Of a DNA stretch of 64,000 bases, positions 5,148-19,010 are shown piece after piece (position 1 is the first letter of the stretch; each line of letters starts with the position of its first letter). The position numbers were made by a program, and so were the translations under genes. Origin of the DNA: Escherichia phage vB_EcoM_ASO2A; sequence record MZ726793.1; one strand, 5' to 3'. The notes beneath the pieces were generated by a model. It searched no databases and was not told the DNA's origin. It saw only the letters and a list, made by a program, of their open reading frames with translations.

Positions 5148-6659
5148 GCCTAAATAATGTTGATAGATTCCGCCTATGGAAAACCGACACAGAACAAAAC
5201 TGAATAAATAGCGGTATCGAGCTAATCAACCATTAAACGAATAACCATACCTCCCAGGGTAACAGGCTGTTAGAGAGCCATTTAGAGCGGTTAAAATCGA
5301 TCAACAACCAACAACAAACCATCAAAAACACCCTTTTACCTCCTTTCTAGTGCAATGATAACCATTATCATCTATCCATGTTTATCTATGCAATATAAGT
5401 GCATAACTATAATGTTGATAATAGTTCGCAACAACTAACTAACCAACAACCTAAAACAATAAGCAAACTAATCATAATCAAAGGAATAATAGCAAGATGA
5501 TTGATAACGACAAACAATCAAACTATGATGAATACTAAGCAAGATAACGATAATACGACAAAACAACCAACTAACGAACAATAACAAACGAAACCATTAA
5601 AATAATAACTATTAGCAAAATAGTGCCTGAATGAAATCATTACAAAACGAATCATTCACAGGATCATCATTAGCACGCTATGCCGGACACATAGCGAGCT
5701 AATAATAAGCCAACTACACCCCAACAATCATAACCATCGGTGATGGTTATTTCTTGTTACTGCGTAGCTTGCAATAATTGCAAGCGTAATACGCTTACAC
5801 TTATTGCGCTGGCTTATTATTAGCATTATATGTAATTACCAAGATCATAACATTAGCGCAATAACAATAATCATTGTGGTAATTACAAGATGAAATCATT
5901 AGCAAGATGAATAATTGCACGTAGCAACATGAGCGAATAGCGACAGGTTGCATAGTGTGCACATAGATGTACACGCAGTGTATAAACATACAAGAAAATA
6001 AAGGCTAATCTTTCGGGGGCGAATACTATCGCGTAGCGATATGTTGAGCATCTTCTCTTAAACGTAAATAAAATCAGAAAATTCTTGATTTATTTTAGTT
6101 TTTATGTTAATAAACGTTTAAATAATAATCATTCTCATATAAATAATAGTCTGCTTGTCATGAGCGGGATCAGTTGACAATGTTCCGTCATATGATGAAG
6201 TTGCCAAACCATTGATAAATAAGTGTTTGTGTGATTTATAATCAAGTGGCCCACCTTGTCGCTATGTTGGCATGAGCCTTGCATAAGTCCTTGAATACGA
6301 ATGATAATTATTCTCATTCTCATGATATTTGGGAATTGTCGCTGCGTGGACCTGACGGCCCGAAAATTCGCGTTAAGCACTTCTTACGTATGCGCCATGA
6401 TTTTTGCCATATGATATTGATTCTATTAGATATTCTTGCCATGATTGCCATGAAACAGGGTGTCCCGAAATAATCTCTCCCCGTAGATATTTTGGGTTAC
6501 TTTTTATACAAGAGTGGGGTGTCAAAAATAATCGGTATATATGGGATAATTGATAGGAATCCCCTATGATAATTCGATTGTAATTCCCTGAGATTGATCG
6601 TATGATGTTGGTGATTGATGATTGCCATGAAAGATGGCTAACGATGAGAGGAGATTATC
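5148..6659. other. 1.5 kb gene-free, repeat- and palindrome-rich region
   Basis: no credible ORF. Plus strand is A+C rich and G poor over about 5280-5720. AGCAAGAT(G/A)A occurs at 5491, 5538, 5901. ATCATTAGCA occurs at 5666, 5895. Palindromes at 5730-5750, 5767-5785, 5782-5796. GATTGCCATGAAA occurs at 6443 and 6620. Confidence 0.6.
5180..5296 (+). repeat. post-terminator non-coding module, copy 2
   Basis: see 4072-4164. Confidence 0.45.
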
Positions 6660-7034
6660 ATGCAAGAGAGTAAAAATGTTCCGTTGAGTAGTGCAACATT
6701 GCTTCGCTTCTATAAAGCATGGATTGCCAACTATCCTGCAATGAATCGCACAACGAGTGGCTTATGTGGTTGTCTGGTGGATTATGTAGATGATTTTGTT
6801 GGTGAGACAACTAGAGAAGAAGATAGAAAATGGCGGGATAGTTTGTTGGACCGTTTGAAATATGAAATGAGGAAACAATTTACATGTGCAGGGCTGGACT
6901 ACAATCTTCCGTTCAATGCAGATTGCATGGATTACCTTTCAGAGTGTATAAACTTGGCGTGTCATACCAACACGTTACGTCTTCAATGGGTGAAAGACAG
7001 AATTGAAGATGCAAATAATGCTTGCATTGAATAA
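6660..7034 (+). CDS. GLC/WVKD paralog family, member 1 (124 aa)
   Basis: SD gagaggag; FYKAW, GLCGC, EMRKQF, LPFN, RLQWVKDR. Confidence 0.7.
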   Translation: MQESKNVPLSSATLLRFYKAWIANYPAMNRTTSGLCGCLVDYVDDFVGETTREEDRKWRDSLLDRLKYEMRKQFTCAGLDYNLPFNADCMDYLSECINLACHTNTLRLQWVKDRIEDANNACIE

Positions 7035-7093
7035 AGATGTTTGTATAATGGTTTGCATACCGCGCATAACAGATAGCCAATGAGGAGATTGAA

Positions 7094-7303
7094 ATGTCAA
7101 ATATGAAAACTGTATCCTTGTATTTAGCTAACACTGATCGTGTGCACACCCTTGCTAACGCAAGTCGTGTACTCGTGCAGTTTCGAAACTTCGCACCGTC
7201 CGTTGTGACAGGTAGTGAAACGTGTGTTATCGATTTCATTAACGAATACTTCCGAGGGAATCCGGTTGGTCGTTATTTCATTAAGGGTCTGAAGGATGCA
7301 TAA
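7094..7303 (+). CDS. hypothetical protein (69 aa)
   Basis: SD tgaggag. Confidence 0.6.
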   Translation: MSNMKTVSLYLANTDRVHTLANASRVLVQFRNFAPSVVTGSETCVIDFINEYFRGNPVGRYFIKGLKDA

Positions 7304-7304
7304 T

Positions 7305-7526
7305 ATGAAACGCATGAAAATTCGTATTGAGAATGATGGTGGTTATAAAGGATTGGCACATGCAAAATTTCCACTTGTGCTGGAAGCTACGGTGGAATAC
7401 AGTGGGCTTGCTCATGTGCGATTCTCGAAGATGATGGAAGTGCAGGAATGGTTTTGGGACGAGATAGATGCACGAGAAGGAGAAGATTATGTTTTCTTTC
7501 CTCACGAATATGAAATTGTCTATTAA
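7305..7526 (+). CDS. MKIR/DYVFF small-protein family, copy 1
   Basis: paralog of 11243-11464 (MKIR., FP.V.EA, DYVFF); start ambiguous between 7296, 7305 and 7314. Confidence 0.55.
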   Translation: MKRMKIRIENDGGYKGLAHAKFPLVLEATVEYSGLAHVRFSKMMEVQEWFWDEIDAREGEDYVFFPHEYEIVY

Positions 7527-7538
7527 AGGTTGTGTGCA

Positions 7539-7778
7539 ATGATCACACCACAGCAAAACGAAGCAGCAATGGATCTTCTTGATAGTTTGTATTTCGATAA
7601 TTGGTATTCTGAATGTGAATGGATGAATATGCAAACTCTGAAAGAGAAGACAAAAGCGTTGATTACAGTAGATCAATTTCTTGCAGAGACGGAAAGAATG
7701 AATTATGATATGGCATCTCGCGCACGACGCGTTTCCATTTTCAATAAAATGTTAGCATTATGGGGAGGTAGAAAATGA
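7539..7778 (+). CDS. hypothetical protein (79 aa)
   Basis: ATG after taaagg; track start 7530 is TTG. Confidence 0.5.
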   Translation: MITPQQNEAAMDLLDSLYFDNWYSECEWMNMQTLKEKTKALITVDQFLAETERMNYDMASRARRVSIFNKMLALWGGRK

Positions 7779-8236
7779 GACAATTCACTATACTGGCAGC
7801 TTATGTGCAATGTGTTCACGATTATGTTAGTGCTCATACAGGTTTGCTGGAAGTTAATAGTAAAATTGAAGGCAATATGGGTACTGTCTATGTGCAACAT
7901 ACTTTATCCAATGTGCCGTTTAAAGTGTTCACTGTTGTAGCTGCCGATTACAATCGTGTAGATGTACGTTTCTTGGATCATAATTTTCGTAACGCACTAG
8001 ATAATATCGAAGATTATCTTCCCGTGAAACCTTTGTCATTTCCACCAAGTCGTGCAAATAATGTAGTGACAAACCTTAATGAAAGGAATGTGGCTATGCA
8101 CAAAAAAGTCCGTCAACTGAAAACGCTGATGGAAATGCAAGAAGAGATTGAAAAAGAACTAAAAGAAGATTTTGGTATGCTTCCAAAAGACGCTTTGAAA
8201 TGGTATGATGAACTAAGAGGAGAAAGTTATGAATAA
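7775..8236 (+). CDS. hypothetical protein (153 aa)
   Basis: SD ggggagg, ATGA overlap. Confidence 0.6.
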   Translation: MRQFTILAAYVQCVHDYVSAHTGLLEVNSKIEGNMGTVYVQHTLSNVPFKVFTVVAADYNRVDVRFLDHNFRNALDNIEDYLPVKPLSFPPSRANNVVTNLNERNVAMHKKVRQLKTLMEMQEEIEKELKEDFGMLPKDALKWYDELRGESYE

Positions 8237-8423
8237 AGGAACTACTGTATATTTAGTAACAAAGAATACCCCAGGCTGGAGCCAATGCAGCACTGTCCCT
8301 TACAAGATCTGTGCAACATTAGAACTAGCACAACGTGCAGAAGCAGAAGTGGATGCCATGCAATACAGCTATGGTGAGATCATTCCTTTTACTCTTGAAC
8401 AAGAAGGAGCATACAATGTTTAA
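8229..8423 (+). CDS. hypothetical protein (64 aa)
   Basis: SD agaggag. Confidence 0.55.
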   Translation: MNKGTTVYLVTKNTPGWSQCSTVPYKICATLELAQRAEAEVDAMQYSYGEIIPFTLEQEGAYNV

Positions 8424-8871
8424 AGTAGGGATTACTTATAAATTCAAAAGCGTTGCTGACCAAGGAGATATGGCAACACATGACAAAGCAAATATTGCTG
8501 TTTGCCAAGCGATTGGAAACGAAGTTTTCAAAGTTATGAATACAGATGATAAGTATGGTCATGTTCTTGAGTTTTATATCAATGGTACCCTCTATACAGC
8601 AGGTGTTACCCCAGGGTTTAATTCGTATACTTATTTGATTGATAACGAAGAATTTAAATATTTTGAAGAAGTAAAGGAGGAAACAATGGGTAAAGCAGAA
8701 CCACAATGGCATGTTGTGATCGTAGGATCAGAGTGTGTAGATGTTTGTTCTAGTTTTGAAAAAGCTTCTGAAGTAGCTACAAAAGCTAAGAAGGATTATC
8801 CGTCGAAGACGGTTGAGATTTACGCTCGTGTTGCAGTAGCAAACGCCACAATCACTATTGATAAGGAGTAA
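8416..8871 (+). CDS. MFK tandem paralog 1 (151 aa)
   Basis: SD aaggag then ATG 8416 (MFKVGITYKF); the C-terminal half (WHVVIVG..FEKA.E.A....P...VEIYARV) resembles the next gene. Confidence 0.6.
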   Translation: MFKVGITYKFKSVADQGDMATHDKANIAVCQAIGNEVFKVMNTDDKYGHVLEFYINGTLYTAGVTPGFNSYTYLIDNEEFKYFEEVKEETMGKAEPQWHVVIVGSECVDVCSSFEKASEVATKAKKDYPSKTVEIYARVAVANATITIDKE

Positions 8872-8876
8872 AGCCA

Positions 8877-9332
8877 ATGTTCAAAGAAGGTCATGTCTAC
8901 CGTTTCCAGGATGAAGATTATATGCGACTATATTCTACCTTTGATAACAGTATTGCGGCTATCATCGGAGAGAATTTTTTCGAGGTGTTGAGCACTGATG
9001 CAAATGGTAATATCTTGTCAATTGTTGTGATAGGGAGAGACGGTATTATCACTGCTAGTGATGGGGATCGTTACATAATCAATTCTGCTCATATAGATTA
9101 TTTTGTTGACGGTGGTATTCGTGGTGGTCGTGGAAAACCCCAAGAAGAACCTGTTGATACAACAAAAGAAGAGTGGTATGTTGTAATGACTGATGACACC
9201 TGTATTTCTGGGTTTGAAAGTTATGAAGAAGCTTTGAAAGAGGCAGCAGAGCATAAAATGTCTAATCCTACAGAAGAGGTTGAAGTTTATAAACGTTTGG
9301 TTGTTGCTACCATCGGCGTATCTTTTGTTTAA
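8877..9332 (+). CDS. MFK tandem paralog 2 (151 aa)
   Basis: SD taaggag; MFKEGHVYRF; WYVVMTD..YEEA.KEA...P..EVEVYKRL. Confidence 0.6.
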   Translation: MFKEGHVYRFQDEDYMRLYSTFDNSIAAIIGENFFEVLSTDANGNILSIVVIGRDGIITASDGDRYIINSAHIDYFVDGGIRGGRGKPQEEPVDTTKEEWYVVMTDDTCISGFESYEEALKEAAEHKMSNPTEEVEVYKRLVVATIGVSFV

Positions 9333-9344
9333 AAGGGGAATGTT

Positions 9345-9782
9345 ATGTTTAAAGTTAATGCTGTTTATTGTTTCAAAAGTAAAGCTGCCTGTGAAGCTTT
9401 CTCTATGATCTCTGATGAAAATTTCAAAATGGCAGCTTTGATTGAAGGGTCTTGTTTCCGCGTCGAGGATGTTAGTGAATCAGGGTCTGTTTGCTCATTG
9501 ATTTTATTGGACAGCGGGGATATTATTGAAGCTGGACAGTATCCGTTCAGAAGTTGGGAGATATTGTTAGCTCGCGGAGAGCGTAACTTTTTTATGTGCG
9601 TGTCTGCGGGGGAAGTTGTGAAAGAAACTAAGGATGTTTCTGTTTACAATTCTGAATTTATAAGTTATAGTGAGTATCAACATCTGGAAGGCATTGTTGG
9701 TCACTTGTTATCTCTGATTGACATTGAATGTGACCTGCCTGAATCATTGAAAGAAGAGTTGAAAGCATTAGATTTGTTATAA
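9345..9782 (+). CDS. MFK tandem paralog 3 (145 aa)
   Basis: MFKVNAVYCFKS N-terminus as in the two preceding genes. Confidence 0.6.
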   Translation: MFKVNAVYCFKSKAACEAFSMISDENFKMAALIEGSCFRVEDVSESGSVCSLILLDSGDIIEAGQYPFRSWEILLARGERNFFMCVSAGEVVKETKDVSVYNSEFISYSEYQHLEGIVGHLLSLIDIECDLPESLKEELKALDLL

Positions 9783-9809
9783 TGTTTCGCACAACGAAAG
9801 GAGAATAAG

Positions 9810-10109
9810 ATGAATCTGACCGAACAGTTACGCCGTATTGCAAAAGAAGCTTCCTTCAACTTCCCTGTTGAAGAAGTGATCGAGACATGTTTTGCTGAAG
9901 CACGAGCGGGGAATTCTTCAAGAAATTTCACACCATCTGATTTTGGTCTGGATAATTCCCCTACCCACCCAGGGGCGATCTACAATCAGGTGAAGTGGAT
10001 GGATGAAGCAGTAGCAATTCTTCGTGAGCGTGGGCTTATTGTTTATAAAGAAATGGATCTGAACGGGGCATACGAGTGGATCACTATTGATTGGTCCGAG
10101 GTGAAATGA
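9810..10109 (+). CDS. hypothetical protein (99 aa)
   Basis: SD aaaggag; C-terminal ..LRERG......I.W resembles 17732-18004. Confidence 0.6.
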   Translation: MNLTEQLRRIAKEASFNFPVEEVIETCFAEARAGNSSRNFTPSDFGLDNSPTHPGAIYNQVKWMDEAVAILRERGLIVYKEMDLNGAYEWITIDWSEVK

Positions 10110-10342
10110 TGAAAGGTAACAAGATGAAAGTTAATCAAGTGCCGAGCGCATACACTTTGTGGCTTGCGCGAGCGTTACACCAGACGATCAAAGACCCTAA
10201 GAAGCCAATGAAGAGTGGGAAGAAGTTTATGTCTAAGGGCAAAACAACCTTTGGCTTCACTCGTATGTCTGTTAAGATGAAAAGGCTGGGGTACAAGCCA
10301 AACTACGCTCGTTACCCTTCTGAATACAACTGGTTTGACTAA
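10106..10342 (+). CDS. hypothetical basic protein (78 aa)
   Basis: ATGA overlap with upstream stop. Confidence 0.5.
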   Translation: MMKGNKMKVNQVPSAYTLWLARALHQTIKDPKKPMKSGKKFMSKGKTTFGFTRMSVKMKRLGYKPNYARYPSEYNWFD

Positions 10343-10355
10343 AAGGAGAAAGACT

Positions 10356-10532
10356 ATGGCTACTTTTCAACAACTGAAAGATGTTTCACGTTTAGTAAGA
10401 AAAATCCGAGAAGCAGACGCTGCTGTGCGGAATGCATTAACGCCAGCAGAGCGTGAAGATCTTGAAGAGGAGGTGAAAACAGCCGAGAATGCTTTTGCTG
10501 TGTATCTTTCAACACTGTATACAGGAGGTTAA
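10356..10532 (+). CDS. hypothetical protein (58 aa)
   Basis: SD aaaggag then ATG 10356. Confidence 0.5.
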   Translation: MATFQQLKDVSRLVRKIREADAAVRNALTPAEREDLEEEVKTAENAFAVYLSTLYTGG

Positions 10533-10847
10533 ATGTCAGAAGAACTTAAAGAATTTTATCAAGCATATCATAACTGGCTGTTAGCTGGTGCTCCTGATAA
10601 TAATCCTTTCTGGCATGATAAAGGATTATGTAGTTGCCTCTACCTTTGGACTGGAGGTTATGATGATCTAAATTATGAAATGCAAATGCAATTCCGTGAG
10701 GCAGGATTGTCTGAAGAATACCCGTTTGATGACGGAGACTGGTTTAAATATGATTTTGCACAAAGAAACGGGCTGCTACATTTGAATGCTGCCCGTATAA
10801 AATGGGTAAAAGATCATGCTACACAGGAGGATGTGCAATGCCAATAG
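10533..10847 (+). CDS. GLC/WVKD paralog family, member 2 (104 aa)
   Basis: SD caggagg; FYQAYHNWL, GAP, GLCSC, EMQMQF, YPF, RIKWVKDH. Confidence 0.7.
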   Translation: MSEELKEFYQAYHNWLLAGAPDNNPFWHDKGLCSCLYLWTGGYDDLNYEMQMQFREAGLSEEYPFDDGDWFKYDFAQRNGLLHLNAARIKWVKDHATQEDVQCQ

Positions 10848-11038
10848 TGTTTAGTTTCTTGGTGATTGTTATGGTTGTTCTTTTCGCGGCATGGCTTTGG
10901 GATTTTGACCCAGGAGCAGCGCAGCAAAGAGCTACAGACTGGAAAGAACAATGTATTGTGCTCAAACATGAACGAAATGCGGAGAAATTTCTTGACCTGG
11001 AGTGTGATCGCCTTGTAAGATACAAGCAAGATAAATAA
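10838..11038 (+). CDS. small membrane protein (66 aa)
   Basis: SD caggagg; MPIVFSFLVIVMVVLFAAWLW. Confidence 0.55.
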   Translation: MPIVFSFLVIVMVVLFAAWLWDFDPGAAQQRATDWKEQCIVLKHERNAEKFLDLECDRLVRYKQDK

Positions 11039-11052
11039 CCTTGAGGTGCAAA

Positions 11053-11241
11053 ATGGTAATTGAGATTAAACTTGAATATGCTGGGGCTGTTGCCCTGATC
11101 GCACAAATGTTGGGAGCAAAGATTGAAGAAGTGTGTATCAATGCCTGGAGTGTAGAGATTAATGTTCCTATGGATAACATTGCTAATCGCTTGCTGGTAG
11201 CAGAGTGTGAACGCACCAACATAATCTACAAAGGAGCATAA
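11053..11241 (+). CDS. hypothetical protein (62 aa)
   Basis: SD gaggtg. Confidence 0.5.
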   Translation: MVIEIKLEYAGAVALIAQMLGAKIEEVCINAWSVEINVPMDNIANRLLVAECERTNIIYKGA

Positions 11242-11242
11242 T

Positions 11243-11464
11243 ATGAAAATTAGAGTTTGTGATGTATTGGGTTATGTTGGTTTTGAGAATGTTCAGATTC
11301 CTTTTGTTGTTGAAGCACATCTTGTTAGCGATGACATGACAACATTCTTTGTTACGATAGAAGAAATGTCCAAAGTTGAGGGATGGGAGTGGTTTGAAGA
11401 AGATGTTTGGGAAGGTTGTGATTACGTATTTTTCTCTGACGAAGTGAATATTCTTGCGGAGTAG
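11243..11464 (+). CDS. MKIR/DYVFF small-protein family, copy 2
   Basis: SD aaaggag; paralog of 7305-7526. Confidence 0.6.
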   Translation: MKIRVCDVLGYVGFENVQIPFVVEAHLVSDDMTTFFVTIEEMSKVEGWEWFEEDVWEGCDYVFFSDEVNILAE

Positions 11465-11466
11465 GT

Positions 11467-11673
11467 ATGTCTTGTTTTACAAAAGCAGTGTCCATATGTA
11501 AGAAACAATATGAAAGTGATTACGGAATATTTAATATTCCAGTAGATCATACAGAGTATTGTTCATGTGGTGGCAGAATGAAGAAAACAGTGATTTATGC
11601 GGATAATGGAGATGAACTTGTTCCGGTTGTGGTTTGCAAAGCTTGTCATTCTGTTAAAACATTAAAAGCGTAA
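11467..11673 (+). CDS. small cysteine-rich (zinc-ribbon-like) protein (68 aa)
   Basis: CSCGG ... CKACH. Confidence 0.5.
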   Translation: MSCFTKAVSICKKQYESDYGIFNIPVDHTEYCSCGGRMKKTVIYADNGDELVPVVVCKACHSVKTLKA

Positions 11674-11768
11674 GGAGTCGGGACACCCGACGATTGGAGC
11701 TAAAAATTTTGCGTACAACCCTTTCCGCCCAACAGGGGCGCGTCGGGTAAGTAAAGAGGAGAGTTTAT

Positions 11769-12167
11769 ATGAAAAAGATCATCGTAGGTTTCTTGTTACT
11801 CATTGCATCACTTGGAACAGCAAATGCGTCTCAAGTTTATGAGTGTGTGTCAGATGTGGTTGTTAAAAATCTGAAAGGTGAAGTGATTTCTGGTCCTAAG
11901 AAAATGGCTTCTGTTGTCATTAATAAAGATAACTCCTTTATCCTTAAAAATTCAGGTGGTGCTTTGATGAGTGGCATTCTGCAATACACAGGAGAAAAAA
12001 GTAAAGATGGTAGTGCTATGTATGGTTCACAACAGTTTATTGGCACTACTGAAGTTGTGATGATGCGCACAGAGTATCGAGACACTTTAGCTTGGTTTGC
12101 ATTTCTAAAAAATGATAAAACAATAACGAATGTTCTTACTCTAGAAGCTGATTGTACGCAACGATAA
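11769..12167 (+). CDS. secreted protein with N-terminal signal peptide (132 aa)
   Basis: SD agaggag; MKKIIVGFLLLIASLGTANA-SQ. Confidence 0.65.
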   Translation: MKKIIVGFLLLIASLGTANASQVYECVSDVVVKNLKGEVISGPKKMASVVINKDNSFILKNSGGALMSGILQYTGEKSKDGSAMYGSQQFIGTTEVVMMRTEYRDTLAWFAFLKNDKTITNVLTLEADCTQR

Positions 12168-12177
12168 GGGGGGATTT

Positions 12178-12633
12178 ATGACTAAAATGAGACATTACGC
12201 TGTAAACTGCAACGATGCTTGGCGTTTGTGTCCTGATGATCCGACAGAAGGCACATTTGTAAGATATGAGGATTATAAAGAGTTATCGGATGCTGTAATC
12301 GCATTGTTAACTGATATCCGTTCACGTTATCCAGGACAAGATTTCACTTGCCCTCACATCAAACTTCTTGCTTGCCTGGTAGAAGGTGAGAAAGAAGTGG
12401 AAGATGGCTTCAAGCGTGTAGAGTATCAAGGTGAAACTTTAGATGTTCCTGAATTTGTTAATTATATTGCAACAGATTCAAGTGGCGAGCGTTATGGTTA
12501 CACTCATAAACCGGAGATTCCAGATTTCGCTTATGCGTGGCGTATTCCTTATGAAGTTTTTAATGTTGCAGATTGCTGGTATTTAGGAGAAGGAAACAAC
12601 CTTAATTGGCGTGATTCCTTGTTTCAGGTTTAA
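12178..12633 (+). CDS. hypothetical protein (151 aa)
   Basis: SD aagggggg. Confidence 0.6.
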   Translation: MTKMRHYAVNCNDAWRLCPDDPTEGTFVRYEDYKELSDAVIALLTDIRSRYPGQDFTCPHIKLLACLVEGEKEVEDGFKRVEYQGETLDVPEFVNYIATDSSGERYGYTHKPEIPDFAYAWRIPYEVFNVADCWYLGEGNNLNWRDSLFQV

Positions 12634-12637
12634 CAAT

Positions 12638-12901
12638 ATGAAAGAGACATTGCCAGCAGCATACCGTTTGAATGATGAACGTATTTGGGAGTGGACCGAC
12701 GTTTCTTGTTTTTACCCTGAAATAGTTCAATATTGGCGAGCAAAAGGGTGTGTTGTAGTTATCAACCCATGTGGACCAGTCGATGAAGATTGCTTGTATC
12801 TCGATGGAAAGTGGCACAGTTATTGTCGCTGGCCTTTTGAGTGGATGTGTAAAGAAGATCTCCCAGAGGGTTGGGAGTATCCAAAAGCAAATAGGAGATA
12901 A
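12638..12901 (+). CDS. hypothetical protein (87 aa)
   Basis: ATG 12638; weak SD. Confidence 0.45.
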   Translation: MKETLPAAYRLNDERIWEWTDVSCFYPEIVQYWRAKGCVVVINPCGPVDEDCLYLDGKWHSYCRWPFEWMCKEDLPEGWEYPKANRR

Positions 12902-12902
12902 T

Positions 12903-13265
12903 ATGTCTAAAGATTTTGTTGAAATGTTTGTCAAAGATGAAGAAACTGGTTTAGGCACAGGTTTCATTTGTGAAGAAACCTTTAAACGTGAACAAGAAAA
13001 AGCTATTCTTATGCGAAACTATGATCACGCATTAGAACAATGGAAAAATGCAGAACAAAAATGCAAAAACCTTTATGCAGAAAATAGAAAACTACAAGAT
13101 CAAATGGAGTTGTTAGCTATCAGTTTACGATCTCTCATTTTGGCTGTAGAAGATGGTTTTAAAAATCCAGATGGTTTTCCTGTGAGCGATATTGAACATG
13201 ATTTGTATCTTGCTCGTGGTGCTTACTTCTATGTTAAACAGAAGTCTGTAGAAGGAGAGAAGTGA
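12903..13265 (+). CDS. hypothetical coiled-coil protein (120 aa)
   Basis: SD taggag; track ORF 12771 trimmed. Confidence 0.55.
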   Translation: MSKDFVEMFVKDEETGLGTGFICEETFKREQEKAILMRNYDHALEQWKNAEQKCKNLYAENRKLQDQMELLAISLRSLILAVEDGFKNPDGFPVSDIEHDLYLARGAYFYVKQKSVEGEK

Positions 13266-13462
13266 TGGAAGAAAAACTGGAACGTATTATCGAGTTAGCC
13301 ATGTCTATTGGCTACGACGATTGTTTTCTCCAAACTATTGGAGAAACAGAGAACGATTACGACTCTTGGGTGAAAGAGTTGGAAGAACTTAAAACTTCCT
13401 TGATTGCTGACTTTGCTAAAGCAGAGGATAAAGCAGATCGTTACAACTATCTGTGTCGATAA
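13265..13462 (+). CDS. hypothetical protein (65 aa)
   Basis: SD ggagag. Confidence 0.5.
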   Translation: MEEKLERIIELAMSIGYDDCFLQTIGETENDYDSWVKELEELKTSLIADFAKAEDKADRYNYLCR

Positions 13463-13465
13463 ACC

Positions 13466-13493
13466 TTGACATTTATTTTATGTATGGTATACA
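13466..13493 (+). promoter_or_regulatory. sigma70-type promoter
   Basis: TTGACA 13466-13471, TATACA 13488-13493, overlaps palindrome ATGTATggTATACATACAT. Confidence 0.45.
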
Positions 13494-13524
13494 TACATTA
13501 TCAACGTGAGCAAGGTGGTGTAAT

Positions 13525-13797
13525 ATGAATAAAGATCGGTTTCTTTCTTTAGTCGCGGAAGCTCCTTTTGATGTTCTTGGGGTGAGATTATGGAAAGACA
13601 GAAACTATGGGTTAGATGTTCAAACATACTCTCTTTGGTTGGTTGGGGAGCACAGCTTAGATGAAAGCTTGTGCATGGGTAGGGATTCTCGTTCCCTCTG
13701 TTTAAAGTTCAGAAGCTTAGAACGCGCAAACAAAGAGCAAGAAAAACTAACGAGGTGGCTAAATGAAAACAAGCGCAAGGTTGATGGAGTTTTATAA
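13525..13797 (+). CDS. hypothetical protein (90 aa)
   Basis: SD aaggtgg. Confidence 0.55.
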   Translation: MNKDRFLSLVAEAPFDVLGVRLWKDRNYGLDVQTYSLWLVGEHSLDESLCMGRDSRSLCLKFRSLERANKEQEKLTRWLNENKRKVDGVL

Positions 13798-14089
13798 AAT
13801 TTATCTAGCATGGATTGATGTTGGTGCTCCTGATGGTAAACCTTTTCGGCGGGATTGCGGTTTGTGTGCCAACTTATTCGACTATGTGCACGCGGATGGC
13901 TACAATCCCCTTATAACAACCTTGTCAGATGAAATGCACGCACAGTTTTACCACAAAGGGTTAAGTCAAGAATTACCCTTCAATGAGAACTACGATGCAT
14001 ATGTCTTAGAATCAGATGCAGAGGTATGTCACCTGAATGTGGACAGGATTAATTGGGTAAGAGATCGTATTGCAGAGGAGGATGAATAA
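13763..14089 (+). CDS. GLC/WVKD paralog family, member 3 (108 aa)
   Basis: SD gaggtgg; FYKIYLAWI, GAP, GLCAN, EMHAQF, LPFN, CHLNVDRINWVRDR. Confidence 0.7.
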   Translation: MKTSARLMEFYKIYLAWIDVGAPDGKPFRRDCGLCANLFDYVHADGYNPLITTLSDEMHAQFYHKGLSQELPFNENYDAYVLESDAEVCHLNVDRINWVRDRIAEEDE

Positions 14090-14316
14090 TGTCGGATTAT
14101 AACTGGTATGAACTTGAGGCTGTTTGTCAGTTTTATGACTCAATAGTTCTGCGTGATCCAATCTGTCAAGAATTGAGTCGCCGTGCAAGTGCATTGGCAA
14201 TCCGTGTTAAAATAAACGGTTGGAACGCAGATTTGGAAAAAGAGTTGGAATTTCTCTTAGAAAACACGCGGGTCTTCCGCAAAGTGTTCCCTGAATGGTT
14301 TGAGATGGAAGAATGA
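14089..14316 (+). CDS. hypothetical protein (75 aa)
   Basis: SD gaggagg. Confidence 0.55.
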   Translation: MSDYNWYELEAVCQFYDSIVLRDPICQELSRRASALAIRVKINGWNADLEKELEFLLENTRVFRKVFPEWFEMEE

Positions 14317-14531
14317 TCATGTGGATTGTGCGTCTTAAGTATGATGGCAAGTTTCCGTGGGAGAAAGATGTTTGTGCTTGTGATTCGGCAGCACATGCCA
14401 AAGCAGCGGGTCAGGCAGTAGTTGACATGTATAACAACACTTCCGTTGATCCAGAAATGGCAGGTGTTACAATGAGCATGTTCACTTACTATTCTTTTGA
14501 GGTTTACTATCATGAAGGAGAGTGGAAATGA
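14313..14531 (+). CDS. hypothetical protein (72 aa)
   Basis: ATGA overlap. Confidence 0.5.
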   Translation: MIMWIVRLKYDGKFPWEKDVCACDSAAHAKAAGQAVVDMYNNTSVDPEMAGVTMSMFTYYSFEVYYHEGEWK

Positions 14532-14848
14532 GCGAAGAACTATTAACATTTTACCGCACGTATTTGGCATGGTTGGAAGCTGGTGCTCCTGAAGGCGAAC
14601 CGTTCACCCGTTGCACAGGTTTGTGCTCGAACCTCTATGATTTTTACGATATGGGTGAAAGCGAACGATACGAACCCGTACTGGATGAAATGCATGAGCA
14701 GTTCTACCGCAAAGGTTTGGTTATGGTGTTGCCTTTCAACAGTAATTTTGGAAAGTACACCTTAGAAGCGGAAAAAAGCCGCTGTCACTTGAATGTGGAT
14801 CGTGTGAACTGGGTAAAAGAACGTGTAGCAGAAGAAATAATTGGTTGA
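14528..14848 (+). CDS. GLC/WVKD paralog family, member 4 (106 aa)
   Basis: SD aaggagag; MSEELLTFYRTYLAWL, GAP, GLCSN, EMHEQF, LPFN, CHLNVDRVNWVKER. Confidence 0.7.
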   Translation: MSEELLTFYRTYLAWLEAGAPEGEPFTRCTGLCSNLYDFYDMGESERYEPVLDEMHEQFYRKGLVMVLPFNSNFGKYTLEAEKSRCHLNVDRVNWVKERVAEEIIG

Positions 14849-14873
14849 CAGAGGGATCTATCTTTGTCATAAT
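14845..14873 (+). promoter_or_regulatory. sigma70-type promoter
   Basis: TTGACA 14845-14850, 17 nt, CATAAT 14868-14873. Confidence 0.5.
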
Positions 14874-14902
14874 CATCTCATCGAAACAGAGAGGAGAGAA
14901 TC

Positions 14903-15316
14903 ATGAAAAAGTTTATTTGCACCCGTTCCACTAACAGTGATATCCTTGTAGGTAAGGTTATCAAAGGAGAACTCTTCCATGCAAACGGTAAGAAATATAT
15001 TCTGCTGAAAGATTCTTTCAACGGGGAATATCCGCGCTGCACTTTCTTCAATTACAACACTCCATTTGCTTTAGAAGGAGATGCTTGGGATTGGGCTGAA
15101 CTCAATCCTTGTTGTGAGGAAGAAGAATCTATGTTCTTAGGTTTAAACGTTTACCGTGTAGATTACACCATGTGCGGAGCGGAACATTCTGTTCGCGTAG
15201 AAGCCGAATCCAAGCTACAAGCACCTTTCAAGGCGGGATTGACTTTGGGTCATTGTTTGGCAAACATTGAAGATGTTGTGATCCAAAGAGTTGTTTTAGA
15301 GAAAGAGGCTATTTGA
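14903..15316 (+). CDS. hypothetical protein (137 aa)
   Basis: SD agaggagag. Confidence 0.6.
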   Translation: MKKFICTRSTNSDILVGKVIKGELFHANGKKYILLKDSFNGEYPRCTFFNYNTPFALEGDAWDWAELNPCCEEEESMFLGLNVYRVDYTMCGAEHSVRVEAESKLQAPFKAGLTLGHCLANIEDVVIQRVVLEKEAI

Positions 15317-15341
15317 CAGAAAACGGTGCAATATTTAAAAT
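15313..15341 (+). promoter_or_regulatory. sigma70-type promoter
   Basis: TTGACA 15313-15318, 17 nt, TAAAAT 15336-15341. Confidence 0.5.
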
Positions 15342-15369
15342 ATAAAGATTAACCACAAAAGGAGAGAAA

Positions 15370-15669
15370 ATGCAAGTTGAAGACCTGATCCAGATTCTAA
15401 ATAAAGCCAAAGAGAAGGGTGCTATCAAAGACTGGAAACGTGAAACGAGTGAAGACCTATCTCACTGTTGCCGAGAATTTTACATCGAAGGTATTGCTGA
15501 CGATCATTATATTATCGAATGGTATATCAACTTAATGACTCTTAAGCACGGTTCGTTTGAGGTTTGGTTTGATGACATTGATGTAAATGGTTTTCATCCT
15601 GGCTATAAAATCGCTATGCAGTTATCTTATCGTAGAGAAGTTGTAGCACATTTGGGTTTACATAACTAA
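15370..15669 (+). CDS. hypothetical protein (99 aa)
   Basis: SD aaaggagag. Confidence 0.6.
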   Translation: MQVEDLIQILNKAKEKGAIKDWKRETSEDLSHCCREFYIEGIADDHYIIEWYINLMTLKHGSFEVWFDDIDVNGFHPGYKIAMQLSYRREVVAHLGLHN

Positions 15670-15679
15670 GGAGAAAAGA

Positions 15680-16003
15680 ATGCAAGCAGTTGTTAACGAA
15701 GCTATTATGAACTTATCCTTCTTGTTAGCTGGTTTAGGAGGTGTTCTCATAGGTTTGGCTCTTATCTGGTGTATTCGTCGATTAGTCGGGTACCGACAAA
15801 AAGGTGTTTCATGTTTTGTATCTTACAATTTTACAACTGCTTACAGCAATGAGGTTGGATCTGGCAATGCTCAAGCATTTTTACCAACATATCCTCCTAC
15901 GGTGGAAGATATTCGAAACTTGGAAGTAGAACTTATGGGACTAAGTGATAACTATACATCTCTAGTTATTCAAAATATTTTTCGACTAAAACAGGGGGCG
16001 TGA
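15680..16003 (+). CDS. membrane-anchored protein (107 aa)
   Basis: SD taaggag; LSFLLAGLGGVLIGLALIWCI segment. Confidence 0.6.
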   Translation: MQAVVNEAIMNLSFLLAGLGGVLIGLALIWCIRRLVGYRQKGVSCFVSYNFTTAYSNEVGSGNAQAFLPTYPPTVEDIRNLEVELMGLSDNYTSLVIQNIFRLKQGA

Positions 16004-16216
16004 ATGAAGGTACATTACCCTCATCCGTTTGATCCTAAAAACAAAGCCGTAATTCTTCGTCAGTGGCAACGGGTTTGTCGTACTAAATGTCCAATCAATA
16101 GCCCACACAATGTAGACAAGGACTATCTTGGGACATTTGTTGAATACACTTACATAGACAAAAACAAGCGTAAACAACATGTCGAGGAATACTGCTTAAG
16201 AGTAGAATGGCTGTAA
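16004..16216 (+). CDS. hypothetical protein (70 aa)
   Basis: SD aggggg. Confidence 0.5.
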   Translation: MKVHYPHPFDPKNKAVILRQWQRVCRTKCPINSPHNVDKDYLGTFVEYTYIDKNKRKQHVEEYCLRVEWL

Positions 16217-16228
16217 ATAATAAATACC

Positions 16229-16257
16229 TTGACAAATGTTTATTCGTTTTGTAAAGT
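16229..16257 (+). promoter_or_regulatory. sigma70-type promoter upstream of the recombinase
   Basis: TTGACA 16229-16234, 17 nt, TAAAGT 16252-16257. Confidence 0.5.
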
Positions 16258-16286
16258 GAGAATACAGCAATGGTTTAGGAGTGGTT

Positions 16287-16958
16287 ATGAAAAAGTTTGT
16301 TGTTTACAGTCGTCTTTCTAAACAGAAAAAAGGTGAGGCACAATATGGTATGGAGAGCCAAGAGAACGATATCCGTTACTTCTTAGACTCTGTACCTGAT
16401 GCGGAAGTTATTGGTCAATTTTCTGAATACTATTCGGGTAAGGGCGATTGGAAGCAACGTAAGGAACTGGTTAAAGCGGTTGAAATGTGTAAAGCTACCG
16501 GAGCAACTTTATTGGTAGCTAAAGTTGACCGCTTGGGTCGTAACAACGCCTCCGTAGCAACTCTTCTAGAAATGATCGATGTTAAGATAGCCATCATGCC
16601 AGACGCAGATAAAATGGTTATACAGCTTCTGTCTGTTCTGGCTGAACAAGAAGTTAGAGGTATTGCTGATCGTATTAAAAAGGGTCTTGCTGTAGCAAAA
16701 AGCAAAGGTGTTTTATTAGGCAGTGCTAATCCTAAAACTGCCGCTGCACGTAGAAAAGGAAAAATGGAATACAACTCTGTTAAAGCAGACGCTTTTGCAG
16801 AGACATTCCGTGAACGTTTGGAGATCCTTAGAGATTTAAATACACCTTACAAAACTATTGCTGAAAAATTCAATAGTAAGAAAATAGCAACAGCACGTGG
16901 TGGTAAATGGGATGCTAAAACTGTTTCTCGTTTGTGTGCCAGACTGAACATTAAATAG
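16287..16958 (+). CDS. small serine recombinase (resolvase/invertase family, 223 aa)
   Basis: SD aggag then ATG 16287. VYSRLSKQ (catalytic Ser region), LLVAKVDRLGRN, EQEVRGIADRIKKGL; C-terminal HTH-like TIAEKFN...GGKWDAKTVSRL. Confidence 0.85.
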   Translation: MKKFVVYSRLSKQKKGEAQYGMESQENDIRYFLDSVPDAEVIGQFSEYYSGKGDWKQRKELVKAVEMCKATGATLLVAKVDRLGRNNASVATLLEMIDVKIAIMPDADKMVIQLLSVLAEQEVRGIADRIKKGLAVAKSKGVLLGSANPKTAAARRKGKMEYNSVKADAFAETFRERLEILRDLNTPYKTIAEKFNSKKIATARGGKWDAKTVSRLCARLNIK

Positions 16959-16966
16959 GAGAGGAT

Positions 16967-17389
16967 ATGAAACAAGAAAATGAATCTGTAGATCACTTAA
17001 TCATGCTGTCAGCCCTTTTTGCCGGATGGGACGTATTTTTTGAAAATTTGTTCAATTCTGCTACAGATGGTTCCGATTTTATGCGCCAGTTTAAACGACG
17101 AACTGTTGAGGACTATGCTTTCTATTCAGGTCGGATTGAAAAAGGTTACGAAGATACAAATACAACACTCACCATTAAAGTTTTAGATGTGATGTTTAGT
17201 GTTATAGATGCTATCGACGAAAGTCTTCCGATCCTAGATAATTGTAATACGAAAGTCTATGTTTACAAAATAGCTCGTGCTTATGTGTCTGCAAACAGTT
17301 GTCTTCTTTCCACCCAGATTGCCGTGAACAATCTTGCCAACTTGTTTGATGAAGGAGAAACTTTTTATGACAATCGATTTGAAGTGTAA
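16967..17389 (+). CDS. hypothetical protein (140 aa)
   Basis: SD taggagagg. Confidence 0.6.
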   Translation: MKQENESVDHLIMLSALFAGWDVFFENLFNSATDGSDFMRQFKRRTVEDYAFYSGRIEKGYEDTNTTLTIKVLDVMFSVIDAIDESLPILDNCNTKVYVYKIARAYVSANSCLLSTQIAVNNLANLFDEGETFYDNRFEV

Positions 17390-17732
17390 GAGGATTCTTT
17401 TAGATTTCTATAATAATTGGTTAGAACACCTCCGGCTCTTTCCAAGAGAAAGTGGTTACGCTGATGTTGGCTTATGCCGAGGTCTACGTATGTATATAAG
17501 TGATGAATTTCGGGCCGAGCATTCTTTAGCATATTCTGTTTATGGTATGCAATTAGCCAGTTTTGAAAACGCTGGCTTAGATACAACTTTCCCATTTAAC
17601 ACAGCAAAATCTTTTGAGCAAGAGTGTAAGGAAAAACGTTGCATGTTTAATGAAAAACGTGTACAGTGGGTTAAGGATCGAGTTAAACAACTGGAACAAG
17701 AGTTGGATTTCTTCTATGATGAGGCAGAATAA
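17367..17732 (+). CDS. GLC/WVKD paralog family, member 5 (121 aa)
   Basis: SD aaggag then ATG 17367; FYNNWL, GLCRG, FPFN, RVQWVKDR. Confidence 0.65.
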   Translation: MTIDLKCKRILLDFYNNWLEHLRLFPRESGYADVGLCRGLRMYISDEFRAEHSLAYSVYGMQLASFENAGLDTTFPFNTAKSFEQECKEKRCMFNEKRVQWVKDRVKQLEQELDFFYDEAE

Positions 17733-18004
17733 TGGATAGACAAACCTTAAAAACAATGGCAGATGCCACTAATTCCCCGTACTTTGAAAAAGTAAGTAAA
17801 TTGGTAGCTCAAGCCGCAGAGGAAGGATATTATAACATAAACATCCACAACCCAAGTCTTATACTAGAAATGCCAAGTGATAAGAAGATACAAGAGAGTA
17901 TCTGTGAAGGTATTGTTAGTTACTGGCGCGAGCGTGGGTGTGGTGCAAACATGGCTTTAGACAGTGCAAACATTGTAAGATATATAAATATTTCTTGGGG
18001 GTGA
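17732..18004 (+). CDS. hypothetical protein (90 aa)
   Basis: TAATG overlap; C-terminal WRERG......I.W as in 9810-10109. Confidence 0.55.
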   Translation: MDRQTLKTMADATNSPYFEKVSKLVAQAAEEGYYNINIHNPSLILEMPSDKKIQESICEGIVSYWRERGCGANMALDSANIVRYINISWG

Positions 18005-18008
18005 TTTT

Positions 18009-18620
18009 ATGATTCAATGCACTCATATCCAAATTACTTGGAGAGATGAACTTTACCATTTGGGACAATTTACTGTAGGGGAAACATACCCTGTCATTAA
18101 ACATAATCCTAACATCGCAAACTTTGATAGGATGGTTCTTGTTGAGGACGATCTGGGTCAAACTTATTCTTTAGATCTAAAATATCCGTTTTCTTACGGC
18201 TACGATTGGATCGTTACTTTTGAAGACGTGGAGGAAAATAAAACAATGAACGAAAAAAATTCTTGGTATTATCGTTGTGAACTGCCGCCAGTAGGTGAAA
18301 AGGTTATCTTTGTTCCTGATTTGGAAAGATATTCTTGGGACAGTTCTTATTCTGTTCCTAAAGAAGGCACCGAAGTTGAAGTTATTGCACATCGCACGAC
18401 TTCGCATGGTAACGATGTAGCAGTTGTTTTCTGGGATGATGAAGGCGCTGCTTGTGCAGGTGGCTTTGTTGCAGGTAACTTTGAACCCCTGCCAGATCCT
18501 TTGAAGGAGGCAATTTTAGGCGTAGCTTCTTTTGGACTCTCTTACACGTCTGCACAGGAGATCGTAGAAGGTATTTTAAACGGTACTGTTCCAAACGAAA
18601 TTTTCAAACAGATTAAGTAA
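18009..18620 (+). CDS. hypothetical protein (203 aa)
   Basis: SD gggggtg. Confidence 0.6.
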   Translation: MIQCTHIQITWRDELYHLGQFTVGETYPVIKHNPNIANFDRMVLVEDDLGQTYSLDLKYPFSYGYDWIVTFEDVEENKTMNEKNSWYYRCELPPVGEKVIFVPDLERYSWDSSYSVPKEGTEVEVIAHRTTSHGNDVAVVFWDDEGAACAGGFVAGNFEPLPDPLKEAILGVASFGLSYTSAQEIVEGILNGTVPNEIFKQIK

Positions 18621-18626
18621 CAGTTG

Positions 18627-18650
18627 CACCCCGTTCTGCGGGGTGTTATT
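18627..18650 (+). terminator. hairpin / weak terminator
   Basis: CACCCCGttctgCGGGGTG + ttatt. Confidence 0.45.
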
Positions 18651-18671
18651 GTATATGTAAAGGAGGCGCTA

Positions 18672-19010
18672 ATGTATTACACTGAAGACTACATATTGTA
18701 TAACTTTTTTAAAGGTTGGTTGAAATGGGCGGAACAAGCTCCTGTCGGAGATTGTGTTTTTCCTTGGGATTCTCGTCAAGGCTTGTGTCGTTGTTTGGAA
18801 GATTGGCTTATAACCACAAACTACAATTCAGAAACTAAGAAATCTACATCAAACAGATTAAAAATGTTGTTTGAAGAAGATGGTTTAGATCCAATTTATC
18901 CTTTCGGTGAGGAAAGTTTCCACAATGGTCTTTTCCTTGGCACTCAACATTATGATAAAGATCGTGTAGATTGGGTAAAAGAAAAGGTAGCACAGTATGA
19001 ATGGGGTTAA
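18672..19010 (+). CDS. GLC/WVKD paralog family, member 6 (112 aa)
   Basis: SD aaaggagg then ATG 18672; FFKGWLKW, GLCRC, YPF, RVDWVKEK. Confidence 0.65.
   Translation: MYYTEDYILYNFFKGWLKWAEQAPVGDCVFPWDSRQGLCRCLEDWLITTNYNSETKKSTSNRLKMLFEEDGLDPIYPFGEESFHNGLFLGTQHYDKDRVDWVKEKVAQYEWG

Follow-up and report, generated by a model that had tools for sequence, protein, structure and literature searches.

Most early genes of virulent phages are without a known function, and a block of small genes in Escherichia phage vB_EcoM_ASO2A (sequence record MZ726793.1) raises this problem in a multiplied form: what would one phage use six diverged copies of a single small gene for? The window analyzed here is a stretch of 64,000 nucleotides from this phage. 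Its + strand is densely packed with small genes at approximately 6-20 kb, and this block holds all six open reading frames (ORFs) of the family. A first-pass annotation, made from the letters of the window, had taken them for an arms-race family. Sequence comparison and structural modelling together allow the six genes to be shown as ancient paralogues of one acidic domain of about 105 residues, predicted to consist of five helices. The role preferred here, with a rough probability of 0.4, is that of early, acidic, cytoplasmic proteins that would bind host or defense proteins stoichiometrically.

All six ORFs were recovered where the first-pass annotation had placed them, and a Shine-Dalgarno (SD) sequence is present 5-9 nt ahead of every ATG that it had chosen (6/6 members). 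Such good SD sequences make longer GTG or TTG starts unlikely for members 4-6. The copies are listed with their length in amino acids (aa), isoelectric point (pI) and E-value (E) against the profile phrog_2510 (PHROG 2510) and, for some, against a hidden Markov model (HMM) built from the other five copies (leave-one-out).

6660-7034, + strand: member 1, an ORF of 124 aa, pI 5.0; SD GAGGAG; phrog_2510 E 2.7e-25, leave-one-out E 5e-20.
10533-10847, + strand: member 2, 104 aa, pI 4.5; SD AGGAGG; phrog_2510 E 8e-29, leave-one-out E 5.5e-24.
13763-14089, + strand: member 3, 108 aa, pI 4.7; SD GAGGTGG; phrog_2510 E 3.5e-32.
14528-14848, + strand: member 4, 106 aa, pI 4.7; SD AAGGAGAG ahead of the ATG at 14528; phrog_2510 E 5.3e-31.
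17367-17732, + strand: member 5, 121 aa, pI 5.3; SD AAGGAGAA; phrog_2510 E 2.2e-26, leave-one-out E 4e-19.
18672-19010, + strand: member 6, 112 aa, pI 4.7, the most diverged copy; SD AAGGAGG; phrog_2510 E 6e-27, leave-one-out E 1.8e-17.

The family is confirmed as real, with precisely six members in the window. In a MAFFT alignment of the six, 15 columns are invariant, and the elements F-Y, G-L-C, Q-F..G-L, P-F and R..W-V are invariant or almost so. Pairwise BLASTP among the 662 six-frame ORFs of the window connects 14 of the 15 member pairs at E 1e-5 to 1e-41; the sole marginal pair is member 1 with member 6 (E 0.04-0.06). Each HMM built from five copies recovers the omitted sixth at E 1.8e-17 to 3.7e-34, with unrelated ORFs at E of at least 0.012, and this formal check gives the shared motifs statistical support. 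A six-member profile run over all six frames of the 64 kb window matches only the six ORFs (E 1e-37 to 1e-44), the next match being at E 0.57. The collinear motifs of the first-pass annotation are thus real, except that GAP..PF is limited to members 2-4. The closeness that it saw between members 3 and 4 holds as well: CHLNVDR(I/V)NWV is common to both, and member 3 is the nearest paralogue of member 4 (52% identity; BLASTP E 1e-40). That there is no true family, the motifs being due to chance or composition, is hardly credible. Nothing favors this beyond the weak match between members 1 and 6, and it is refuted by the leave-one-out searches (E 1e-17 to 1e-34), by the match of an external PHROG profile to all six copies, and by two independent confident models that have a common architecture.

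Is this family known from elsewhere? The window comes from a phAPEC8-like Phapecoctavirus; its region is 96-98% identical to many Phapecoctavirus genomes over 90-100% of its length, those of vB_EcoM_DE16, Mt1B1_P17 and phAPEC8 among them, and the six genes are annotated as "hypothetical protein" in every record. All six match PHROG 2510, itself labelled "unknown function", at E 2.7e-25 to 3.5e-32 (90-113 bits), and show weaker matches to PHROGs 6418, 27059 and 2176. Only positions ~4-113 of the 219 in the PHROG 2510 profile are covered by the window proteins, a half-length coverage consistent with a profile built with tandem two-domain members. In addition, the orthologues in phage nieznany are labelled pVOG VOG7392. 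The family is therefore already catalogued, which the first-pass annotation had missed, but it is without a name, Pfam entry, structure or function in the literature searched, where its PHROG and VOG identifiers are not mentioned and no functional statement was found on PHROG 2510/VOG7392, on the family proteins or on gp3 of phage N4. The same annotation was right that no known domain can be assigned, as searches of Pfam, NCBIfam, PADLOC and the PDB were all empty. For instance, no Pfam or NCBIfam family scores above its curated cut-off for the six copies, Pfam gives zero families for 115 diverse members, and ten longer or fused members also have none above cut-off in Pfam or NCBIfam, with P0056 staying below threshold against Ubiq_cyt_C_chap (18 bits vs 21.5). 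Against the PADLOC-DB defense models, none of the six members finds a family at E of 0.1 or below.

The family is large. When 1.84 billion cluster representatives (clustered at 50% identity) were searched exhaustively with the profile, 1,823 proteins were retrieved at a threshold of E ≤ 1e-3, and 786 of them also pass E ≤ 1e-10; this amounts to ~1,800 family clusters. By tblastn with member 3 alone, 258 phage records are matched, with hosts in Escherichia, Klebsiella, Rhizobium, Achromobacter, Erwinia, Ralstonia, Delftia and others. Among the matched groups are Phapecoctavirus and the phi92-like Justusliebigvirus, further large Escherichia myoviruses of 134-145 kb (A5-4, vB_EcoM_TH18 and vB_EcoM-LTH01), N4 itself and N4-like phages that infect Achromobacter, Erwinia and Rhizobium, Ralstonia phages of ~43 kb (e.g., RSB1), ~45-48 kb coliphages and Salmonella phages, and others. 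A Foldseek search of viral models brings in more relatives, PhiW-14, BcepSaruman and JG068 among them, and every one of these is "uncharacterized". The relatives that have names are virulent phages with hosts among the alpha-, beta- and gamma-proteobacteria; no member was found in phage SUSP1, where one was looked for. The plasmid collection contains one match only, in a P1-like phage-plasmid. On the basis of the phage records and the plasmid collection, the family is shown to be large, uncharacterized and, as far as these sequences reach, restricted to phages, N4 gp3 included. The plasmid-borne member (E. coli phage-plasmid NZ_CP148392.1, 5971-6450) has a C-terminal extension of ~50 residues, and ~4 kb away from it lies a DUF2829 gene (10432-11109), DUF2829 being the Tad2 anti-Thoeris family.

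N4 gp3 (YP_950481.1) is assigned to the family by hhalign (probability 98.8%, E 1.1e-16, 96 aligned columns), and its ORF is found by the family HMM at E 6e-20. Like the window copies, it retains G-L-C, L-P-F-N and C-H-L-N..R-I-N-W, in a protein of ~104 aa encoded in the early left-end region. By contrast, N4 has one copy where this phage has six, the identity is just 20-30%, and the E-M..Q-F motif of the window copies is absent. No function of N4 gp3 has been published in the literature searched.

What kind of protein is encoded? The structure prediction and Foldseek search that the first-pass annotation had proposed gave confident five-helix models and no solved relative. AlphaFold2 models of members 3 and 6 have a predicted local distance difference test (pLDDT) of 95.1 and 94.5 and a predicted template modelling score (pTM) of 0.87 and 0.88, respectively, with five helices in the same order. 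The best Foldseek hit of the model in the PDB is at E 2.5, and the PDB sequence profiles do not match the family; thus, the domain is without a solved relative. Likeness in sequence or fold to solved anti-defense proteins (Ocr, ArdA, Acb2, Tad1/2, AsiA and others) was not found. With a pI of 4.5-5.3 and a net charge of -4 to -10, the six proteins are acidic, as are most products of neighboring genes (median pI 5.0), and none of the six has a signal peptide or membrane segment.

Conservation was computed on the 115 diverse members, with residues numbered as in member 3. Cys35, Pro72, Phe73 and Arg95 are conserved in 100%; L7, F10, Y11, G33, L34, Q61, F62, L67, W98 and V99 in at least 94% (Q61 in 94%); Asn92 in 90%, Glu57 in 89%, Tyr80 in 88%, His90 in 74%, Glu83 in 73% and Asn74 in 71%; and Cys89 in 48%. 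In the models, Cys35 is at the N-terminus of helix 2, and His90, Asn92 and Arg95 lead into helix 5. The metal site that had been suspected from conserved Cys and His residues is unlikely, since a set of three or four ligands is not kept among these members: Cys35 is the only invariant Cys/His ligand, members 2 and 6 lack C89 but have H90, and member 5 lacks the common His, with CMFN in its place. Two further candidates were rejected. A HEPN-type helical RNase would call for an R-x(4-6)-H motif at a helix N-terminus together with profile similarity, and a helix-turn-helix or winged-helix regulator for a fold match together with a basic DNA-binding surface; neither combination was found.

The same residues could instead belong to a small enzyme or small-molecule binder, with Cys35 as a helix N-cap and Arg95, Asn92 and His90 as a putative catalytic or anion site. 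Its substrate would be a conserved proteobacterial metabolite, a nucleotide signal or a protein side chain, and the paralogues would differ in substrate or partner. The full conservation of C35 and R95 fits such a site, as does the high conservation of N92 (90%), Q61 (94%), E57 (89%) and H90 (74%), although His90 is missing from member 5 and from 26% of relatives. N4 gp3 also keeps C35, the P-F pair, H, N, R and W, but not E57 and Q61. Both key segments are at helix N-termini in the models, a geometry used by phosphate-binding and thiol enzymes such as the C-X5-R phosphatases; the proximity of the residues, however, is only putative. Purifying selection on the orthologues would also suit an enzyme. 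Nevertheless, an all-helical domain of 105 residues with no fold relative among solved enzymes would be an unusual catalyst, and 6-10 copies per genome are atypical for one. This reading, the chief rival of the preferred one, is thus judged unlikely. It is doubtful, too, that the N4 gp3-like domain is a new fold with a Cys/Arg/His/Asn active or ligand site, defining an unrecognized and very widespread class of phage early effectors (enzymes or sponges) that would be aimed at a conserved component of proteobacterial immunity or stress response, with arrays and fusions tuning specificity.

How the array has evolved can be followed in close relatives. Copies were counted with the family HMM over the homologous block of seven related genomes, the window included. 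There are three in nieznany, two intact and one frameshifted in DIJ07P2, six in this window, six in SF1-1, seven in phAPEC8 (with a tandem pair at the member-1 site), nine in phiWec179 (with a tandem triple at the member-1 site) and ten in PsgM04F. Members 2 and 4 are absent from nieznany and DIJ07P2; nieznany lacks three members, and DIJ07P2 lacks members 2, 3 and 4. Moreover, the member 6 orthologue in DIJ07P2 (L006 9770-10175) is broken into two ORFs and looks like a frameshifted gene or pseudogene. Member 5 alone is intact both in the window and in the five near-identical relatives compared, SF1-1, phAPEC8, nieznany and DIJ07P2 among them, and phiWec179 and PsgM04F have no member 5 orthologue (best matches 30-33% identity). 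Member 3 is 100% identical to phAPEC8 gp222. Such copy-number variation is the behavior of accessory conflict genes. The arrangement recurs in an unrelated metagenomic contig, where six family genes with seven domains lie within 9.5 kb, and ~10% of some 200 retrieved relatives are tandem fusions (21 two-domain and 1 three-domain proteins), whose halves are only 17-43% identical to each other.

Changes in the sequences themselves are of another kind. The ratio of nonsynonymous to synonymous substitution rates (dN/dS), computed by the NG86 method on orthologues of at least 90% identity from six relatives, is 0.129 for the family and 0.114 for 35 neighboring genes, as pooled rather than site-specific values; purifying selection on the orthologues is of an ordinary kind. 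Identity among the six paralogues is 22-52%, and member 2 resembles sequences from elsewhere (46-49%) more than it does the other five copies. A recent burst of duplication was rejected, since DNA similarity between copies is confined to motif-coding stretches of 40-56 nt with 65-77% identity. Taken together, the purifying selection, old divergence and copy variation indicate an array that is old and maintained, with turnover by loss and gain of whole genes and not by fast sequence change. The arms-race proposal of the first-pass annotation therefore stands in part: the range of 3-10 copies in close relatives, the deletions, the frameshifted copy and the local tandem duplications support it, whereas the dN/dS values, the age of the paralogues and the residue core fixed across phages of three proteobacterial classes do not.

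These results also bear on the idea that the genes serve the phage itself, for instance as chaperones or adaptors for early proteins or as regulators of an early-to-middle switch, with no conflict with the host. Purifying selection and deep conservation would agree with this, and every relative examined has at least one copy, with member 5 being intact in the window and five near-identical relatives; N4, too, keeps its single copy beside the genes of the transcription cofactors gp1 and gp2. However, copies are freely lost (three from nieznany, three from DIJ07P2 along with the frameshifting of one more), and many phage groups, such as that of SUSP1, are without the family. A conserved neighbor is absent, and the acidic charge speaks against DNA binding. 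Phage-internal housekeeping is thus quite improbable.

When would the genes be expressed? The first-pass annotation had placed them in a region of early type, and the block does look early by its position and by promoter-like sites. The elements concerned are the following.

14845-14873, + strand: near-consensus sigma-70-type promoter-like site directly 3' of member 4, TTGACA-17-CATAAT with an upstream TG (11/12; a consensus match only).
15313-15341 and 16229-16257: similar promoter-like sites, with 10-11/12 matches.
18626-18646, + strand: GC-rich hairpin of 9 pairs, 6 of them GC, from a scan for terminator-like structures, between gene 18009-18620 and member 6; its T-tract is weak (TATTGTATAT).

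Elsewhere, family members lie in small-gene blocks near genome ends or at the starts of transcription units of virulent Proteobacteria phages, and in N4-like and RSB1-type (T7-like) phages they are within the first 1-3 kb of the record. N4 gp3 lies between gp2, an early cofactor gene, and gp15/16, the early RNAPII genes, all of which give early products (PMC4496689). These positions point to early expression of the family; a Phapecoctavirus transcriptome was not found in the literature searched.

Within the block, member 1 is the first gene past a gene-free stretch of ~1.5 kb, and member 6 is the first gene 3' of the terminator-like hairpin. Since the hairpin precedes member 6, this copy opens a unit and does not close one; several members had been described as lying at the 3' ends of sub-operons, which agrees with the promoter-like site after member 4 but not with the hairpin. 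Four members overlap adjacent genes. The start of member 3 overlaps the upstream gene 13525-13797 by 35 nt (13763-13797), member 5 overlaps the end of its upstream gene by 23 nt (17367-17389), and the starts of downstream genes overlap members 2 (10838-10847) and 6 (18997-19010). The overlaps at members 2, 3, 5 and 6 suggest translational coupling inside sub-operons. As for partners, the genes 3' of the six copies are mutually unrelated, and distant family loci have only unannotated small genes nearby, with no shared partner. In the absence of a conserved neighbor, a two-gene cassette or a toxin-immunity pairing was ruled out.

In the role preferred here, the copies would be made early, remain in the cytoplasm, and neutralize or redirect host proteins, most likely effectors of defense or stress systems. 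The helical scaffold would bear a fixed polar site, putatively formed by Cys35, with which helix 2 begins, and by His90/Asn92/Arg95, at the N-terminal end of helix 5, and with Pro72-Phe73 close to it; this conserved core might be structural or might be a common contact site, and variable loops and helix surfaces would set a separate target for each paralogue. A bigger array would then handle a wider range of hosts or defenses. As tandem-fused forms exist, the proteins may work as dimers or pseudo-dimers.

Comparable arrays are known. Polyimmunity loci (SUKH/Imm-type) and anti-CRISPR or counter-defense clusters consist of small single-domain proteins, often acidic, whose diverged paralogues are found side by side or fused. 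The present family resembles them in its diverged and tandem-fused copies and in a copy number that varies between close relatives. Unlike them, it has no sequence or profile relation to any of these (Pfam 0 for 115), its fold matches nothing solved, and it has an invariant Cys and Arg, which most such families do not. There is also a likeness to the immune-nucleotide sponges of the Acb2/Vs.4 type, which are phage-encoded, early, all-helical proteins of ~100 aa; the family is phage-encoded, ~100 aa long, predicted to be all-helical and probably early. In effect, the array adds a new and clearly delimited case to a type that is already familiar, in which a virulent phage carries an early accessory gene family in several copies, and neither the six-copy array nor its variation between 3 and 10 copies is described in the literature searched.

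Several points weigh against stoichiometric binders of host or defense proteins. Homology in Pfam, NCBIfam, PADLOC or the PDB ties no member to a target or defense system, and there is no recurrent partner gene beside the members. Amino-acid change in the orthologues does not exceed that in their neighbors (0.129 vs 0.114) and the paralogues are old, a slow turnover unlike the rapid change typical of many anti-defense proteins. The polar core, which is fixed in phages of three proteobacterial classes, would be explained by a shared ligand or chemistry no less well than by diverse protein targets, and the spatial clustering of Cys35, Arg95, His90 and Asn92 is putative. Early timing in Phapecoctavirus is itself read from position and promoter-like sites. 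Finally, phi92-like phages have been reported as exceptionally susceptible to restriction-modification (RM) systems, and the phi92-like phage EmilieFrey (Bas61) carries four family copies; thus, the RM class at least would not be countered, which likewise detracts from the arms-race proposal. The same observation bears on a general anti-restriction protein or DNA mimic of the Ocr/ArdA type, because four copies in RM-susceptible phages argue against a general anti-restriction function. The acidic pI of 4.5-5.3, the early position and the place of member 1 right after a gene-free region would suit a DNA mimic, but the neighbors are equally acidic and there is no likeness in fold or sequence to solved proteins, Ocr and ArdA included. 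Such a function is very improbable.

Other features of the block deserve mention. The A-rich, gene-free stretch directly 5' of member 1 (5150-6650, ~1.5 kb) contains three Fur-box-like 18-mers (5354-5371, 6121-6138 and 6300-6317; e.g., AATGATAATTATTCTCAT) and a hairpin at 5730-5750. In many independent GenBank entries for relatives, the sequence begins or stops at ~6047 or 6281-6300 of the window, which may be a physical genome end or terminal-repeat boundary. A second paralogue pair (7296-7526 and 11243-11464; 38% identity, E 2e-11) has each of its copies ~640-710 nt 3' of a family member (members 1 and 2); this spacing suggests that a segment with several genes was duplicated as a module long ago. 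A third paralogue family consists of three adjoining genes (8416-8871, 8877-9332 and 9345-9782), all starting with MFK(V/E); the match between the first two has E 3e-13, and that of the third to this pair E ~2e-3. A serine recombinase or DNA invertase gene (16287-16958) is found midway through the block, in the interval that separates member 4 from member 5, and a Resolvase-domain gene adjoins the family array in the unrelated metagenomic contig (L009 8279-8950). Shuffling driven by an invertase was nevertheless rejected, as the block has no long inverted repeats that could be candidate inversion sites. PsgM04F is related to this phage at the protein level (60-97% per gene). The records MG065650.1, MG065656.1, OP562383.1 and OR584014.1 are labelled as Campylobacter, Acinetobacter or Pseudomonas phages and have ~97% DNA identity to this E. 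coli phage region; either these host labels look doubtful or the host range looks unusually wide.

With ~1,800 clusters, a spread over phages of three proteobacterial classes and one member in the model phage N4, the family is a well-defined, tractable target and a good candidate for host takeover or counter-defense. Natural test material exists in the single-copy gp3 of N4 and in the phAPEC8-like phages with 3-10 copies. If the Cys/Arg site is functional, the family would represent a new effector fold; if not, it would be an ordinary set of phage ORFans.

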